In this document: one piece after another, positions 1-53,010 of the stretch | Position numbering within the stretch: the first letter of the stretch is position 1 | How the letters are laid out: each line of letters starts with the position of its first letter | Source: Ginglymostoma cirratum | Taxonomy: Eukaryota | Direction of reading: 5' to 3' | DNA length: 64,000 nt | Assembly (NCBI GenBank): GCA_024137785.1 | Contig: JAHRHZ010000289.1 | Location: forward strand, 32,538,417-32,602,416 | Notes under the pieces: model-generated | Databases searched by the model: none | The model's input: only the letters and a program-made list of their open reading frames with translations | Told to the model about the DNA's origin: nothing | Made by a program: the position numbers and the translations under genes

Positions 1-127
1 ATAGGAGCAGGAAAACTTGACGTTTCGGGCCTAAACCCTTCACATCATGCTGCTTGACCTGCTGTGTTCATCCAGCCCCATGCCTGTTATCTCGGATTCT
101 CCAGCATCTGCAGTACCTTTTATCTCT
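1..127. mobile_element. Hammerhead-bearing short element, family A; collapsed head-to-head palindrome, truncated by window start
   Basis: 1-46 reverse-complements to ...GAAGGGTTTAGGCCCGAAACGTCAAGTTTTCCTGCTCCTAT; 47-127 is the + strand 3' part of the same family (ATGCTGCTTGACCTGCTGTGTTCATCCAGC...CTCCAGCATCTGCAG), matching copies at 4270, 11215, 44380, 61253. Confidence 0.85.
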
Positions 128-3354: not shown

Positions 3355-3705
3355 TTAGATCTTTCACTGGATGTAAGCATCAGTGCTAAGGCTGCTGTTG
3401 CTTAGCCCAGGTTGCTTTTGAAGAGAAACAAAAACAGAAATCGCTGGAGAAACCCGAAATGTTGACTCTGCTTTCTCACCACAGATGCTGCAAGACCTGC
3501 TGAGTTTCTCCAGCTTTTTTTATTTTTGTTTCATCTGCAGTTCTTTGTTTTTGCCTTTGAAGAGGTGGTGTTGAAACACATTGCTGAATTACTACAGCCC
3601 GTCTGGTGTTGTTACACGACCAGCACTGTTCGAAAGGGATTTCTAGGATTTTGACCCAGCCAGACAGAAGGAATGCTACTGCAATTCAATGTTAGGATGC
3701 TGTGC
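3355..3705 (-). mobile_element. 3' end of the CR1/L2-group LINE family seen at 47121-48102, interrupted by a family B element
   Basis: AGGGATTTCTAGGATTTTGACCCAGC and GAAGAGGTGGTG are reverse complements of the 47930-48040 region. Confidence 0.65.
3426..3550. mobile_element. Hammerhead-family short element, family B; collapsed palindrome with 14-bp TSD
   Basis: Left arm AAACAAAAACAGAAATCGCTGGAGAAAC is the inverse of the right arm GTTTCTCCAGC...TTTTTGTTTC; residual core CCCGAAATGTTGAC; flanks TTGCTTTTGAAGAG (3412-3425) and TTGCCTTTGAAGAG (3551-3564). Confidence 0.85.
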
Positions 3706-20587: not shown

Positions 20588-20969
20588 ATTTTTGGGTCTA
20601 CCATTATCTGTTCTTCCATATCGATCATCCTGTATTTTCACTACAGTCTTCAGTAGTGTTCCTTCAAATCTGGAGTATACATCATTTACAAGCCATAGAC
20701 TCCTGTGGAAGTTCATGCACCGTTCATTTCAATTCCAGGAAACCTCATTTTAATGCTTAACATTTGTGTTTTCCTTTCTAAAAAGGTGTCTATCCTTGTG
20801 ATTTCTCCCCCCTTCATACTGTCTGCTATTTTCCAGAAAATAAAAACCTTTGCTTTTATAAATTAGAGCACTAAGCACAAGACAAAAATATTTTGCTAAT
20901 CTTGCACAAGTTATTGGATAGCTATCGTTAAGAGAATATATCCAGTTTTCTGTGTCTTGCTTGAAGAAG

Positions 20970-42500: not shown

Positions 42501-44115
42501 GCAGTATTAAGGATAGCTAAAAGTATTGCTGAAATGACATATAATAGAGTAGGAAAGAATATTGTGGTGTCACCACTGTAGCATAACACTGTTATCTGGT
42601 AGTCAGGAGGGTGTAGTTACTTCTCAAAAACTAAATTGAGCATCTCCGATAGAGTTGTGGAAATTATAATGCGTTTGAAGTATTGAGCTATTATTCTACA
42701 TACTGTGGGTTTATTCAGATTCCAGCATACATTAAACTCATATTAACATTATAGCAGATATTTGAATCATTTTGATCAAAATGGTATCTTCTACTGGCAG
42801 AGATGCCAAATTTGGAGGTGGGGGAGCACATAATGAAGAGGGGTGGTGGCAGAACTAAATCCTGCTGCTTCTCTGCCTGCCCCAGAATTAAGTGAAAGAT
42901 CCTCCCATTCTGCCACGTTTGAGGCCCTTAAGTATCCAATTAAGGACCTTGGTTCAGTGTCACTGGGCATTACACCAGCCTGTCTTCATACAGTATTCCT
43001 GGTAGCCGCAACCCTGTCAGTACTGTGTCCCCAACGTGGAAGGGGACCTCTCAATAAAAAAGCAATCAATGCCTGATCGAGGGATTGAACATCATGCAGG
43101 AGGGTCCACACTAGGAGCCAATCCCTTGTGCTTGTTGCCGAACACACTGCAAGCGCACTTGCCCACCCCATTCCCCTTTCCCAGCCAGAGAAATCCCCAC
43201 CCCACATCAAGTTACCTTTGCCCTGAGTCCTCTGCAATCGTGGGGCTTTGGGGAAAATCTAATACCAGCAGCCATGACTTCATCCATGCTACTGCTAAGC
43301 ACAAAAGCAGTAGGCCATGTGAATTCACAGGGTAGGACTTCCAGCCGCAAAGTTCTCAGTTCTAGGGGAATGCCTGCTGGCAGCTCTCTCAGTCTCTTTC
43401 GCCAGATCAGTATTATTGGGGAATTATTATTGCTATTGTTGTTGTTGTATTATTGAGGCATTGGGAGGGACTCAACTGCCAGCTAGGAAGTTGGCAATAC
43501 ACCCCTGCTGCCTCTTCCAGGAAAGGCCCATCAAACCACATGCCAACCAGCCTTCAGCATTATAAGCATTCATTCAAAAGCGGAAGAGAATTAAATGGAT
43601 GCAACACGGGTGAGCAAGTAGAGAGCTATCACAACTACAATCCTTTTAGACAAAGAGTGCAATTCACATATGTCTGGATACCAACAAACATTTCTGACTT
43701 ATGCAGTCAGGCCAGGTTATATGAAGTTATTGCAACATTGCAAAGGAACAGAAGCTGGTGTAAACTAATGTACAACACGCCAATTGGACATACGGGGAGC
43801 GAGGCAGAAATCAGTGATATTGATGACTGTGTGGTGATGCTGATCATCAGCAGCTGGCAGCAAGACAACCAACAGCAACCGAAAGTAAAATGTGCCGCTT
43901 TATGTGGGTATACAATCACCCACTCTGAATGTGCTGTCAAACCTCGAAAACACTTTGTCAAAGTTTGAAGTATTAATCTTGTCACATGTCTGTAAACTTG
44001 TTGAATTGACAACACCTGCCTATGGACAGCAAAACTTATCTGTAGGGGATTTATTTTCTTTAGAAAAAGGGGAATGTTGTGTTATGTCTCAAAGTGGGTG
44101 TTTAAGATACCTTTT

Positions 44116-44190
44116 CAGTCTCAGTCCAGGGGTTTGACCATGCTCGGTCTTGGGGGTTAGGGCTGTAAACATCAAGACACATTTTCAGGG
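44116..44190 (+). repeat. Perfect 75-bp direct repeat, copy 1
   Basis: Identical to 45830-45904. Confidence 0.95.
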
Positions 44191-44379
44191 ACACGTTCAA
44201 GATGTTATCACTGTATTATGGAATGTGACCTAATCGTATGAAGCTCTGAGTCTCCTTCTAATTGGGCTCTGTTCTCCAACAGCATGTGTGCTGATGGTAG
44301 CATGTTACAATAGGTTTGAATTGCTTAGCTTGAACCCAGACACATATTTATGCAAATAACAAGCGTTGTAAAATAAGTT

Positions 44380-44475
44380 ATAACAAGCATGGGGCTGGAT
44401 GAACACAGCAGGTCAAGCAGCATCGTAGGAGCAGGAAAACTTGACGTTTCGGGCCTAGACTCTTCATCAGAAAAA
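44380..44475 (-). mobile_element. Hammerhead-bearing short element, family A, with perfect 16-bp TSD
   Basis: TTGTAAAATAAGTTAT at 44366-44381 and 44476-44491; body matches the other family A copies. Confidence 0.95.
44438..44474 (-). ncRNA. Minimal type I hammerhead ribozyme motif with intact core nucleotides
   Basis: Minus strand TTTT-CTGATGA-A-GAGTCTAGGCCC-GAAA-C-GTC-AAG: both core boxes and GUC triplet intact; one stem II mismatch, weak stem I; activity untested. Confidence 0.7.
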
Positions 44476-44919
44476 TTGTAAAATAAGTTATTGGGTTTGT
44501 CAGTACTATGTGACCAACATCTTATTCTTACAAGAGCTAATGTAAATGTCACAATATGGTACTGGCAGATCATCAGTATATCTTGTCACCTCCCATCATG
44601 TTGCAGCAATTGGGAATCCACTAGGTACCAGGCTGCCTGTTGCTGGGTTAACCGTAGCAGAGGTGAGCTTGCATCCTTAGGTAAACACTTTAGAGCATCA
44701 GTTATCAACTGGAAAGAAAGGGTGACCATGGATCTTCCCATCCAGAACTTCATTCTGTTGGAGGTGGGAAAACAGCAGAGCTGAAATATGCCGCTAGCCT
44801 AGCTAACCAATTGCCCTACCTACCTTCAAGCTCACCAGCTCCAGGAGCAGGAGATTCCACACTGTAATACTGTTATGTTGAAGCTTTAATGAAAATATTG
44901 GGACCATAGTGCAAATATT

Positions 44920-46620
44920 TTAGGGGACTTTTCCCAGCCCTTGAGTGATATGTGAAATGGCAAGCAATTTGGGAGAATAGGATGAGGACAATAAAATCAG
45001 AATTTAAGGAAATAAAGACTGACTTTCCATTTAAGGTTTCAACAGCTAGATCAGAATCTTGCTGGTAAGCTTATTTCCATACATTTGTTCCAATTAGTAG
45101 CCAATCTTGTCTCATTTATATACAGTGCATGATTTGCCTAGTCTTGGGTGAGGAACTCAAATGGTGCCAATTTACAATTTGAAAGTCTGAGCAGCTATTG
45201 AGCAGATGCAGCTCACAGTTGTTTGCCTAAGTCTTCTTGTTCACCTGCATTCCTCAGCATCTCATAGCCTGCTCTATAGCTAGCGACCACCTCCACTCTT
45301 CATCCATGGAATTCAGTACCAAAATGCCAGCCTCACCACATCATTATGGACAATCACAGGCTAATTCAGAAGACACTTTCAGCACATCACTATTGCACTG
45401 CGGAGCTCACCAACACTTCACTTTTCAATGCACTTGCCAGGTCAGTCTGAGCACAGTTACAAATACCCATCCTGTCTCCAGGATGCATCTCAGGGACCTT
45501 AGTTTGCTTTCTTAGTGCTTACTTACTTTGCACTTCTTTGCACCATCTCTATTTTGCCTTGCCTTTTCATACATTAGCACTTCATTGAGAAATTACAAGC
45601 TTTTAGCCTCTCTGCATGCCCTTGCTTCTTGTTGTACTCAACAAGCCAGGCAGATTGTCATTGGTTGCCTGCACTGAACAATCAAGGGGCTTGACCTGTT
45701 GCTTTATGAAATGGTGCTATGTCACAGCAGCCAAATGGCCACGTCTCAATGTCTGAAGGGAACAGCCTTTCGTGGAGTGATGGGAAACTATGGTCAATCA
45801 AGGTTTCCACCACATTCAGTCAAGGGATCCAGTCTCAGTCCAGGGGTTTGACCATGCTCGGTCTTGGGGGTTAGGGCTGTAAACATCAAGACACATTTTC
45901 AGGGGCCATCCATGCTGTGTTGGACAAGGTAGAAAACTTGAATTGGAGACAATAGTCTGCAATATAAAGGGGATTATTACTGTGGGTCTGGTACAGTATG
46001 GAAGGACTGAGGGAGAGGGTTTGGTTTTCCAAATCACCACTGGCCTGGCAGACAAATAAAGCGAATGAGATGTAAGTGGCTAGAAGAACTGTTTGTGGTG
46101 GTGACGTGTCCTTGGTGAGCGAGTAGGAAACACAGAGGGCAAGTAGGCTTAGTAGCTGGGAGGACGAGGTTAATGAGAACTATTGAATGAAATGCTGCAT
46201 GTAATAGTGAGAGTAGCAGATGATTAGCCTTGGTGGGAGATGTGTGGAATGGCAAAGCTAGACAGGGTGAGATAGAGTGTAGTGGCATTTACTCTTGCAA
46301 AGTGCAGAAGGTCTTTGAGATTCTGTCTACATTGCTGAGTGTTTCTTGTCACAGGGGGTCACTGTATGTTGACCATCTCAGCCCAGGCTGGCAGTATCTG
46401 GTGCTATTGCCTACTTTGAAGTCCAGAGGAAAGACAATGACCGTCATTTCAAGCACCTTGGCAGTCAGGACCTCCAGGTCCCTGCTCACAAACTGCACAG
46501 GAACATTGCTGTGGAGCTGAGATGTAATTATTGAGATGAACAGTCGAAGATTGCATGAGAAAAATCGCCATGGTCCACAATAGGAAATCTTCCATGAAAC
46601 TCCCCAGAAAGTTGCCCTTG
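44920..46620 (-). mobile_element. PIF/Harbinger-like DNA transposon relic with Myb/SANT-like pseudo-exon at 46289-46510
   Basis: Minus strand FVSRDLEVLTAKVLEMTVIVFP (frameshift) HQILPAWAEMVNIQ*PPVTRNTQQCRQNLKDLLHFAR then GTAA; trihelix Myb/SANT pattern F...LE.L...W..VA...R...QC....DL; element limits uncertain. Confidence 0.6.
45830..45904 (+). repeat. Perfect 75-bp direct repeat, copy 2
   Basis: Identical to 44116-44190. Confidence 0.95.
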
Positions 46621-47120: not shown

Positions 47121-48102
47121 GGGTCCTCAGGGTAGTGTCCTAGGCCCAACCATCTTCAGCTGCTTCATCAATGACCTTCTCTCCATCATAAGGTCAGAAG
47201 TGGGGATGTTTGCCAGTGATTGCACAGTGTTCAGCACCATTCGCGACTCCTCAGATACTGAAGCAGCCCATGTTCAAATGCAACAAGATCTGGACAATAT
47301 CCAGGCTTGGGTTGACAAGTGGCAAGTGACATTTGTGCAACACGATGGCCAGGCTATGACCATCACCAATAAGAGACCATCTAACCACCGCCCCTTGACA
47401 TTCAGTGTTACCATCACTGAATCCCCCACTATCAACATCCTGGGGGTTACCATTGACCAGAAACTCAACTGGATTCACCACATTAACACAGTAGCTACAA
47501 GAGCAGGCCAGTAGCTGGGAATACTGCTGTGAATAACTCATCTCCTGACTCCTCAAAGCCTGTCCCCCATCTCCAAGGCACAAGTTAGGAGTGTGACGGA
47601 ATACTCCCCACTTGCCTGGATGGGTGCAGCCCCAACAACACTAAAGAAGCTTGACACCATCCAGGACAAAGCAGCCCGCTTGATTGGCACTACATCTGCA
47701 AGCATTCACTCCCTTCACCACCAACACTCAGTAGCAGCAGAGTGTACTATCTACAAGATGCACTGCAGAAATTCACCAAAGATCCTCAGACAGCACCTTC
47801 CAAACCCACGACCACTTCCATTTAGAAGGACAAGGGCAGCAGGTATATGGGAACACCACCACCTCCAAGTTCCCCTCCAAGTCGCTCACCATCCTGACTT
47901 GGAAATATATTGCCGCTCCTTCACTGTTGCTAGGTCAAAATCCTGGAATTCCCTGCCTAATAGCATTGTAGATCAACCCACAGCAGGAGGACTGCAGCGG
48001 TTCAAGAAGGCAGCTCACCAATACCTTCTCAAGGGCAACTAGAAATGGGCAAGAAATGCTGGCCAGCCAGCGACACCCACATCCCACAAATGAACTAAAA
48101 AA
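47121..48102 (+). mobile_element. 5'-truncated CR1/L2-group LINE, RT C-terminal half and 3' UTR, relatively young
   Basis: PQGSVLGPTIFSCFINDL..EVGMFASDCTVF..QQDLDNIQAW.DKWQVTF..ILGVTIDQKLNW; EYSPLAWMGAAPTTLKKLDTIQDKAARLI; GGTCCT at both ends (47122-47127, 48103-48108); stop at end of ORF 47200..47514. Confidence 0.95.
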
Positions 48103-48120: not shown

Positions 48121-48240
48121 CAAAACAGAAATTACTAGAAAATGTCAGCAGGTGTAGTAGCATCTGTTGGACTAATTGAGTTTTCCAGCAATTTTTGTTT
48201 TTGTTTCTAATTTCCAGCAAACACATTTCCTTGGTTTTTC
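48121..48240. mobile_element. Family B element, collapsed palindrome lacking the ribozyme core
   Basis: CAAAACAGAAATTACTAGAAAATGTCAGCAGG..GCATCTGT joined to TGAGTTTTCCAGCAATTTTTGTTTTTGTTTC; flanks TTTTTCTGCTT (48110-48120) and TTTTTCAGCTT (48242-48252). Confidence 0.7.
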
Positions 48241-49660: not shown

Positions 49661-50360
49661 TCAGTTTCATGTTATAATAGCTTACAGTTTCCACTGTGTT
49701 GTGCTGTTCTTTGCAGTGTAATTAGCCCAAATCATTCAGAACAGCATGAAGGATTAAGGAACTGCAAAGCCCATCCAGTATAAACCAATTGTGATAGTTT
49801 TGAAAACACTGGACTAGATAATAGTTTCCCCTGATAATTGTGAATTTTCACTAACTTTTTCACTCATTTTTAGAGCTTGTAAGAGGTTCCTAAATTTTAA
49901 TTGGCTGTATCTGGTGCAAGACATGTTCTAAAATAATTTCAGTGTTTAATAGAAAACTGGCTGTTATACACTGATACAACAATCAAACATTATGAATAGG
50001 TCTTTTTAAAACCAATTTCAAAATTGGACGACTCACAGCGGAAAAGGAACTCTGATTAAAATGTTGATTTACTGGTGATAAAATTAATTTTGTCTGTGTT
50101 AATGAAATAATATTAAGCTACTATTCTTAAAAGCATCAGGAAATAACTTTTAAATAAATTTATTCAAAAATGTTCTAAAATATTGCCGAGTGACAAAGGT
50201 TCATGTCATAACTTCCAAATCTGTTTCAGCAGAAATGAAAATTTAAAAAAGACTTCTTAAGCATTGCAGAATTTTCATGTGACTTCAAGCCAGCTTGCTA
50301 GTTGAACCCAAAGAAAAACTCAACCCTTATCTCTTTTTTGGAATGCATATCAATATTTTG

Positions 50361-50667
50361 GGGTGGTACGGTGGCTCAATGGTTAGCACTGCTAACTCAC
50401 AGTGCCAGGGACCCAGGTTTGATTCCACCCTCAGACGACTGCCTGTGTGGAGTTTGCACATTCTCCTGGTGTCTGCATGGGTTTCCTCCAACGGTCAAAA
50501 GATGCGTAGGTTCGGTGAATTGGCCTTACTAAATTGCCTGTAGGGTTCAAGAATGTGTAGACTAGGTGGGTTATAGGGGAATGTGTCTGGTTGGGATGCT
50601 CTGAGGGTCAGTGCGGACTTGTTGGGCCAAAGGGCCTGTTCCCACACTGTAGGGATTCTATGATCTA
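50361..50667 (+). mobile_element. HE1-type SINE, near full length
   Basis: GGTACGGTGGCTCAATGGTTAGCACTG, GGTTTGATTCC, V-core, tail CCCACACTGTAGGGATTCTATGATCTA. Confidence 0.92.
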
Positions 50668-51429
50668 TTTAATTACTATGGGGAGAAGAATTGGAAAGTT
50701 TTGAACTACTTGGACATACTCTGAACGGAAATGGGATCCTGTATGGTAATTTCTTGAAAAAGAAAGAAATCAACCAACAGCTTAATATGTACTGTAGTTT
50801 ACCTGCTGTTTACTCAAACACAAGTGACTTTGGAGAAACAGTCAATCATAAGTTTCAAGGAGATATGAGATGCTGCTTTCACCTTGATAATTGGAAAGCT
50901 TGGTTCTGAAAGCACTAGACAGCTTCTATGCCAAAGATTAACTGTCAACCCTTTCTGGTCTGAGAATTGGTATCACAGACCCAGGAGTCAGTGAAAAGAA
51001 GCTAAAAAGACTCTCCTGAAATTATGTTTCTCAGTAGAAGCTCCTGGGAATCTGATGGAGCTTCCAAATATCAATAAGTTTCTTCTCCTTGTTAAAACCT
51101 TAAGGGGTTGATTGAGGTCAAACCCTAAAGAGTCAATTCAAGTTAGTGGCAGTTGGAACAGGATGTTGACTATCAATCTATAGTTGTCAACAATTCAGCA
51201 TCATCAACAAGAAGTCCAGTGGATGTGAAAAGTCATCACATTTTATCCTTTCTTTCCCTGGATCACAGGGGTTTGTTTTTTTTTTGCCCTTTTGCACTTT
51301 TTTTTTCAAAATCTCATAATTTCTGTTGAAATATATCTTTTGAATTTTGCGTGGTTGTCTGTATGTGGAAACGAGGTGATATAGTTTTAAGTTCAGATTA
51401 TAGCTGAGGCATTAACCAGCTTTTGCCTC

Positions 51430-51770
51430 TTCATTCCCTTTCAGAACATAAAGCAATTCTCCACTATTAACAAACCTCTTCAGTTCTGAGGAAGGGTCAC
51501 TGGACCCAAAACGTTAACTCTGATCTTTTCTTCACAGATGTTGCCAGACCAGCTGATCATTTCCAGCAACTTCTGTTTTTGTTCCTTTGTCCATTGCACT
51601 GGGCCTCTGCCTCTGCCAAATGTATCAAATAAAAACATTTTCCAGCATCTTTCAGTGCTCACGAGGTTGTACCATACCTGAAATGTTTACTGTTTCTCTT
51701 TCCACAGATGCTGCCGGATCTGCTGAGTTTCTCCAGCATTCTCTGTGTTTGTTTCCAGTTTCCAACATGT
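51430..51770 (+). mobile_element. Tandem of two family B-type units, each with a hammerhead-like core
   Basis: AGTT-CTGAGGA-A-GGGTCACTGGACCC-AAAA-CGTT-AACT at 51482-51519; second CAGTG-CTCACGA-GGTTGTACCATACCT-GAAA-TGTT near 51653-51692; each followed by CACAGATG.TGCC.GA.C.GCTGA. Confidence 0.8.
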
Positions 51771-52611
51771 ACCTTTATTCAAGTGCTTGCTACTTACCTT
51801 AAGAATATATCTTGTTCATAGTAAGTGGAGTATTCGGCTCATTAAAGAAGACGATGAAAGTTTCTTTAATTGCAATACAAATGAAAGCAATTGGCCATTT
51901 TAGCAATTGAATCAACAAATTCGTTTTAATAGTGTATACTAGTTGAGTGGTGGGACTTGATTATTAGTGCATTCCTCATGCTACAGTCGTAACGGTCTTT
52001 TATTCAAACAGAAAGCCTCTTGGATTATGTCCAGTCCACATCTCTTTTATTATAATGAAAGTAGATTTGGCTTTATTTGGTTTCTCTTCATAGTTCAATA
52101 TCTTAAACCTGGATTCATTTCACTCAGTACTTTCAAATGCTTTATAGATTTTCCTGAAGTGAATCATACTCACAATGGATCATAATTATTCGGATATCTT
52201 CACATCGGTTCTTTTTAGTTCAAAGAATATCAAAGTAACTTTTTCATCTGTATACATGCAGATTAGATTTATCTTAAAATATTGCCAGAACAAACTGTGA
52301 TGATGATTTTAATATTTGATCAATAAATTTTTGACCTGTCATTTGCAATTCAATTTGTTTCTTCTATCTTATATTTATTAATGATAAATTAGGTTTATGA
52401 ATTATTTCCATAACTATAAGCTCACTGATGATCTCTTGCAATGCTGGCCTGTTCCTCCAACATCTTATTTCTCCATGCAGTATCGTTTACAAACTTAAGA
52501 TAGCCTACATTTAACAAATGCATCGATGTGATCTTTAAATAAGGTTGAGAGGATAGAGACGTCGAACAAATGCTTCATGTCTGTCTTTACAGTAAAACAC
52601 AAAGTTTTATC

Positions 52612-53010
52612 ATTCAATCCTCTCATGAAAAGCAGGCATCGCAAATGAGGCTAGCAGTCATTTCCCGTGCCTAAATGCCCTTGAACTGAGGGCTTGCTAG
52701 GCCATTTCAGAGGGCAGTTAGGAGTCAACCACATTGCTGTGGGTCTGCAGTCACATATGGGACAGACCAGAAAAGGATGGGAGATAGATTTCTCTCAATG
52801 ACATTAGTCAATCAGAATTTAGTTGTACAACTAACAAAGATAGTTTGATGATCACTATTACTGAGACAAGCTTTCATTTGCAGGCTTTAATCAAATTTAA
52901 TTTCGAGAATCTGCCATAGTGGGAATTGAACACATTTTAACCTACGCCTCCAGAGAATCAGCCTGGATCTCTGGATTACTGGTCTAGTGACATGAACAGT
53001 GCCACATTGC
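52612..53010 (-). mobile_element. tRNA-headed SINE (48438 family)
   Basis: TGCCCTTGAACTGAG..CTTGCTAGGCCATTTCAGAGGGCAGTTAGGAGTCAACCACATTGCTGTGGGTCTG...CTCTGGATTACTGGTCTAGTGACA. Confidence 0.9.

Follow-up and report, generated by a model that had tools for sequence, protein, structure and literature searches.

The locus consists of two short repeats on the plus strand of a 64-kb window of the Ginglymostoma cirratum genome (the window being the whole stretch of DNA that was analysed), which has a G+C content of about 40% and no long reading frame. Unit 1 (51476–51583; profile match 51480–51586) and unit 2 (51651–51758) are separated by a spacer (51584–51650). The initial annotation had reported a second, degenerate unit about 170 nt downstream of the first, and it is present, at a distance of 172 nt from C3 to C3 (51486 to 51658). 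Both repeats are solo pieces of the kind found at the ends of Penelope-like elements (PLEs). Unit 1, of subfamily B, is made of a hammerhead plus about 68 nt, with its 5′ edge at 51476–51480 and without the optional tail. Unit 2, of the 36067-type subfamily, is the older one and keeps at most a remnant of the tail. Both units begin with TTCAGT, a start that we take to resemble an initiator element.

Unit 1 contains a minimal type I hammerhead (51482–51519), which matches the core at 10 of 11 positions. Read from the letters, it has a stem I of four pairs (AGTT, 51482–51485, with AACT, 51516–51519), a CTGAGGA box (51486–51492) of the CUGANGA form and an extra A between positions 9 and 10.1 (51493). 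Its stem II has five pairs (GGGTC, 51494–51498, with GACCC, 51503–51507; loop ACTG), including the G10.1–C11.1 pair (G51494–C51507), and its helix III is the palindrome ACGT (51511–51514) with no loop 3. Position H17 is T (51515), and the cut is predicted after it. The G12 position is A (51508), i.e., the general base is lost, through a CG to CA change of the CpG-decay type. The stem, core, loop and ACGT letters given in the initial annotation, the replacement of G12 included, are all confirmed by this reading. A minimal-hammerhead descriptor allowing one core mismatch matched unit 1 alone in the window, against an average of 0.033 sites per shuffled window (60 dinucleotide shuffles); at zero mismatches, no site in the 64-kb window passed. 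The “textbook fold” claimed for unit 1 is contradicted by the A at G12 and by the lowest-energy fold of 51478–51525, which keeps stem II and loses stems I and III (z −0.98). Likewise, the free energies of the unit 1 and unit 2 folds are no better than those of shuffles. Judged from its letters, unit 1 is a dead hammerhead copy and not a ribozyme, since its GAAA box lacks G12.

The hammerhead of unit 2 (51653–51692) is decayed. Its CUGANGA box is broken by a C at the G5 position (51660); the same position is A in contigs of two public runs (X6 and X12), and G5 is therefore lost there too. Stem II has one of five pairs in register and reaches four only when A9 is used. Both the extra nucleotide after position 9 and the G10.1–C11.1 feature are missing, and helix III reads ATGT, so that the palindrome is lost. 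Stem I consists of five pairs, one of them G·U, and the GAAA box keeps G12. At unit 1, 51475–51479 may be the left-hand part of a target duplication of 5 nt, though a weak one, alike at four of five positions with 51584–51588, and no exact-match duplication of at least 6 nt was found around this unit. At unit 2, a candidate target duplication (51637–51650 and 51757–51770) is alike at 11 of 14 positions. At 51520–51540 and at 51690–51712, a pyrimidine run ending in CACAG is followed by ATG and resembles a splice acceptor.

Both units are members of a dispersed family. With a profile built from nine window copies, 16 matches at about 11 loci were obtained in the window, the nine seeds matching by construction, and none in a reversed decoy. 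Units 1 and 2 are only 64% alike. The closest window copy of unit 1, at 20594, is 71% alike; for unit 2, likeness reaches 81% with the copy at 3449 and 77% with that at 36058. All 11 core letters are present in one of the ten aligned copies, and none passes the full descriptor. The G12 column holds G in seven of the ten, and the ACGT palindrome of helix III is intact in five. The C11.1–G12 dinucleotide is CG in three copies, TG in four, CA in two and another in one; the corresponding numbers for C15.2–G16.2 are five, two, two and one. The decay of the copies looks neutral and of the CpG type. The best-kept copy in the window is a family A copy on the minus strand (44366–44491), which has all 11 core letters and an exact 16-nt duplication around it; it starts at the T-run of helix I, has no tail and carries one A·C mismatch in stem II.

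Records from four public runs were placed on 50900–52300 at a threshold of 80% likeness, yielding 58,395, 47,289 and 36,093 records from three large runs and 1,402 from run X23. The depth, which is a contig depth and gives no copy number, is piled on both units and lies near background on the flanks and spacer. For the spacer bin 51605–51651, it amounts to 234, 171, 47 and 0 in the four runs, as opposed to 2.8M, 1.1M, 0.17M and 14k for the unit-1 bin 51464–51510. Run X23, presumed to be RNA, covers 10 of 30 bins, with nearly all of its depth on the two units, and is uninformative on expression of the locus. Joints in the runs that skip 172–196 nt correspond to solo copies elsewhere that match part of unit 1 and part of unit 2; they are neutral on the question of tandems.

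The spacer is host DNA that lies outside the repeat family and is older than unit 1. It resembles neither the upstream flank of unit 1 nor the downstream flank of unit 2 (shuffle P 0.43 and 0.86, respectively), and no tandem repeat of a period near 172 was found in the window. A 1,958-nt contig of a related species, organism D (record 9 of run X17), covers 50948–51475 with its letters 156–677 and 51584–51754 with its letters 1–155. It thus joins 51475 to 51584, lacking unit 1 to the nucleotide (108 nt) but keeping the spacer and unit 2. Its left flank has 76 differing letters over about 525, i.e., it is about 85% alike. A single contig (depth 5.17, one run) shows this empty site, with no outgroup; it is read from the record coordinates, and its joint is not among the 15 joints listed. 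In organisms A and B (runs X6 and X12), the flanks are roughly 4–8% different. Contigs of these runs extend from unique flank into unit 1 for 30 and 31 letters, and others hold the last 20–22 letters of unit 1, followed by the spacer and unit 2; a bridging rule of 31 letters is reached by one of the four. Among the matches listed, the orthologous unit-1 contigs of organisms A and B end at 51505–51506, short of the G12 position.

Because the site in organism D lacks unit 1 yet has the spacer and unit 2, the units represent two separate insertions. The simplest reading is that unit 2 inserted first and unit 1 later, beside the older unit 2; a precise deletion of unit 1 in organism D may be an alternative reading of the empty site. 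The “tandem” of the initial annotation does not hold, as the stretch between the units is unrepeated and the units are separate insertions. The best explanation, to which we assign a probability of about 0.88, is that the locus arose by two independent insertions of high-copy short PLE end-pieces, both non-coding and inactive, unit 2 having come first and then unit 1 from a different subfamily.

The assignment to PLEs is based on the form of the copies. At four loci in the window (3–97, 3425–3534, 35977–36151 and 48122–48209), a minus-strand piece lies 5′ of a plus-strand piece. Such an inverted junction is absent at the unit 1/unit 2 locus. Among the matches listed, opposite-strand joints at 51481–51485 occur in 15 X6 contigs and 29 X12 contigs, and opposite-strand joints are also present in X17. 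The 15 3′ ends listed fall into two classes, one directly behind the U-rich run and the other some 30 nt farther on, as the loose-end consensus behind 51755 also indicates. The end-pieces are correspondingly about 105 nt long, or about 135 nt with the tail. Exact target duplications of 16, 13, 9 and 8 nt were found at 4 of the 11 loci tested, a count made without a shuffled control. In the available text of two studies (PMC3846280; 10.1101/2021.04.23.441226), inverted 5′ copies, a 30–40-nt tail on one end and target duplications of this kind are described as a PLE signature. We infer a PLE parent, from which the units, themselves not PLEs, would derive, because the inverted 5′ junctions, the optional tail and the variable-length duplications match this signature. 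The segment 3417–3564 has the look of a miniature PLE-style insertion, with an inverted and a direct piece, a tail on one end only (3425–3555) and a 9-nt exact duplication outside. Further head-to-head pairs lie at 3–136, 35977–36151 and 48122–48219, and a purine microsatellite separates the arms of the 36-kb one.

No PLE reading frame (telomerase-like reverse transcriptase plus GIY-YIG endonuclease) was found in the window. GIY-YIG matches were absent from 150 window ORFs, which comprise all 57 of at least 90 aa, all 50 of 35–89 aa at 50000–53000 and 43 of the 195 near other copies. A tblastn search of the window with the protein of L002 gave nothing below E 0.3. L002 is a metagenome contig from another organism, picked by pattern, in which 114–1297 of the minus strand represents the 3′ part of a PLE with a cysteine-rich linker and a GIY-YIG domain (E 4.9e-05); from the linker, we take this element to be of the Neptune type. 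An intact minimal hammerhead is located on the same strand, about 160 nt behind the stop of the GIY-YIG frame, with stem II arms as in the window family, and this hammerhead is all that L002 has in common with the family. L002 was the one match of a pattern scan of metagenome contigs; a second such scan gave none. The scan of prokaryote genomes gave no match, and the two scans of viral contigs gave none and one. The latter (L001) lies inside a phage-like ORF and was rejected as a chance match.

The Rfam hammerhead models have no match in the window or at 51400–51800, nor in L002. Their silence is uninformative, because they also miss the L002 hammerhead behind the GIY-YIG frame. This matters for the view that the family is a short mobile element unrelated to PLEs, whose hammerhead likeness was inherited from elsewhere or is incidental. 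The lack of an Rfam match would suit such an element, as would the lack of a PLE ORF beside any window copy; however, the former carries no weight for the reason given, the published consensus of the minimal hammerhead (min-HHR) fits, and the inverted 5′ junctions, optional tail and variable duplications would have to be explained otherwise. We regard this view as improbable.

A LINE-type reverse transcriptase fragment is located at 47122–48039 on the plus strand (Pfam RVT_1, E 2.5e-08), with the reverse transcriptase at 47122–47511 and then a frame; other, presumably CR1-like, fragments are scattered through the window. The longest stop-to-stop frame (43366–43965, plus strand, 200 aa) belongs to no Pfam family. 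An exact 75-nt direct repeat (44116–44190 and 45830–45904), 1,714 nt apart, is unique in the window and has unrelated flanks; its two copies may bound a small, young element, or have arisen by local duplication or from an assembly slip.

The pair might also be the decayed relic of a head-to-tail dimer of 172-nt units, from a non-LTR retrozyme or a PLE partial tandem, that once cut as a double hammerhead and made circles. Units on the same strand, 172 nt apart, are what such a dimer would leave behind, but each unit is closer to distant copies than to its 64%-alike neighbor, and no tandem of a period of about 172 and, among the 15 joints listed, no go-back joint was seen. Cross-pairing of the units is formally possible (helix III 4/4 pairs; cross stems I 3/4 and 3/5), and PLE-end-derived retrozymes are reported in one chondrichthyan in the available text of 10.64898/2026.07.22.740005; nevertheless, organism D has the empty site of unit 1 with unit 2 in place, and the spacer is near single-copy. 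A dimeric origin is therefore very unlikely. The more specific proposal of a PLE partial tandem fails in that unit 1 is absent in organism D, the spacer is outside the family and the units are of different subfamilies. Nor is adjacency commoner than expected by chance: if 10–16 loci are placed at random in 64 kb, one or more pairs on the same strand with starts 110–250 nt apart arise with a probability of 0.10–0.23. Tandems no more frequent than chance and a lack of significant covariation were named in the initial annotation as grounds for refuting it, and at the level of the window both apply.

Covariation in stem II, which the initial annotation considered visible within the window, is not confirmed. 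Family A and unit 1 have the same 5′ strand, GGGT, and differ on one side only (T–A against T·G). The 36067-type subfamily, on the other hand, differs from unit 1 on both sides at one stem II pair (G–C against A–T), and its stem II arms are the same in the loose-end consensus at 51690 in three of the four runs. Across the ten copies, two-sided changes occur at 3 of 11 pairs, which was equalled in 212 of 500 shuffles and makes the overall signal insignificant. The covariation score was equalled in 39 of 500 shuffles. Paired cells amount to 76.5% versus 72.0%, equalled in 13 of 500, although this measure is inflated by relatedness. The alignment is sequence-based and made of ten decayed copies, with the 36067 copy out of structural register and a possible undercount by one pair. 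The G–C to G·U changes at the first stem II pair are CpG decay. At most one compensatory pair separates the subfamilies, a real but not significant signal.

The substitution G5C alone leads to loss of hammerhead activity. In a double hammerhead, each site is composite, one unit contributing CUGANGA, stem II and GAA and the other the cut site, as is established and also described in PMC4209133. The available part of PMC2553840 reports that cleavage with G12A is slower by a factor of more than 500 in minimal hammerheads and of about a million in full ones, and the combination of G5A with G12A serves as an inactive control in that of PMC6128941. Both composite sites of the pair would be dead, one by G12A and the other by G5>C and the broken stem II. 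The double-hammerhead fold has a computed ensemble share of 4e-12, in a model that ignores tertiary contacts and proteins. As far as sequence can tell, the pair does nothing as a ribozyme, and the active double hammerhead releasing unit-length RNA that had been envisaged is unsupported. It is hardly credible that two independent insertions accidentally formed a hetero double hammerhead that works, or was co-opted, within a host transcript: to the extent covered by contigs, organisms A and B do have both units at the orthologous place, unit 1 retains all stems, and protein assistance is possible for PLE hammerheads (PMC11167929, available text), but one site has G12A, G5 and stem II are missing from the other, the double fold makes up a negligible part of the ensemble, units and flanks diverge freely between species in the contig comparison, and eight of nine genomic Xenopus dimers tested did not cut (10.64898/2026.07.22.740005, available text).

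The predicted cut site is spanned by 11 of the 16 profile matches, and none starts at it; the other five start downstream, all in inverted-junction loci (the match at 48187 being counted as downstream, since its first part is the opposite arm). Because copies span the cut site, the template RNA appears to have been uncut, and the evidence argues against mobility of the family by way of a cut, unit-length RNA. A comparable case is PAc, the Poseidon PLE of Anolis carolinensis, for which the available text of PMC11167929 describes internal starts of reverse transcription, a tail between two start sites and uncut RNA as the main template, together with a ribozyme that is dispensable for insertion and active only with protein.

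In the proposed mechanism, the source would be an autonomous PLE, probably of the Neptune type, whose protein would bind the uncut transcript. Reverse transcription would start at one or the other side of the tail, about 90–125 nt past stem II, and would pass through the hammerhead and stop at or near helix I, or fold back to produce the inverted junction. The hammerhead of the parent element would cut weakly, either as a dimer via the ACGU palindrome or with protein help. Unit 1 would have inserted about 67 nt upstream of unit 2 after the lineage of organism D split off, and the inserted copies would decay neutrally as methylated DNA. Copies stopping at helix I may reflect either a transcript start there or stalling at structure. 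Tentatively, and with less than even odds, the tens of thousands of solo 105–135-nt pieces could be precise, short cDNAs running from an internal start of reverse transcription, on either side of the tail, to the transcript 5′ end at helix I. If so, they would map the transcript start and both priming sites in vivo on a genome scale, and would show that copying proceeds from RNA with an uncut hammerhead.

The locus itself matters little, being one of very many dead copies. It cautions that, where a genome is rich in repeats, neighboring hammerhead copies should be checked for an empty site before they are labeled a dimer. Given whole-genome analysis, the family could offer a large set of natural copies in which to study what the hammerhead does in PLEs and where their tail comes from. 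PLEs are expanded in the whale shark, according to the available text of 10.1101/443036. No paper describing the hammerhead of this family in sharks was found in a search without most subscription journals, Repbase and the supplements of 10.64898/2026.07.22.740005.

The closest known system is the min-HHR of PLE pseudo-LTRs, published in 2014 (PMC4209133). In the available text, these are mostly single dispersed motifs with weak cleavage that act as dimers, and dimer cleavage is ascribed to Lunse et al. 2017 via the available part of PMC6765202. The initial assignment to minimal PLE-type hammerheads with a palindromic helix III and poor, dimeric action agrees with this description. Like unit 1, min-HHRs have a CUGANGAH core, an extra nucleotide after position 9, G10.1–C11.1 and a palindromic 15.2–16.2 without loop 3. 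Like the window family, they have a short helix I with a U-rich 5′ side and occur as several families per genome, mostly as single dispersed motifs; the layout of family A resembles the Acropora Neptune row of Fig. S3 in that study. In contrast, unit 1 has A at G12, unit 2 lacks G5, and no ORF is attached. Fig. S3 includes no cartilaginous fish among its 56 motifs, and the available part of the second supplement does not mention sharks.

As described in the available text of PMC11167929, PAc shares with the window family copies that include the uncut hammerhead, and two end points that bound a 30–40-nt tail roughly 100 nt downstream of stem II. Yet PAc is an autonomous element found in ORF-bearing tandems, whereas the window shows only solo pieces of 105–135 nt. 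Non-LTR retrozymes (PMC7229834; 10.64898/2026.07.22.740005; available parts) are likewise short, non-coding and PLE-related, with a type I hammerhead, and 172 nt is in the range of their units. Animal retrozymes are described as derived from PLE ends and present in the sole chondrichthyan sampled, and one of nine genomic dimers cut (10.64898/2026.07.22.740005, available text). However, a retrozyme repeats a single unit head to tail and its ribozymes are complete, whereas the units of the window pair differ, their spacer is unrepeated and neither ribozyme is complete. Collectively, the hammerhead class is already known, and units 1 and 2 are ordinary genomic fossils of a common element.
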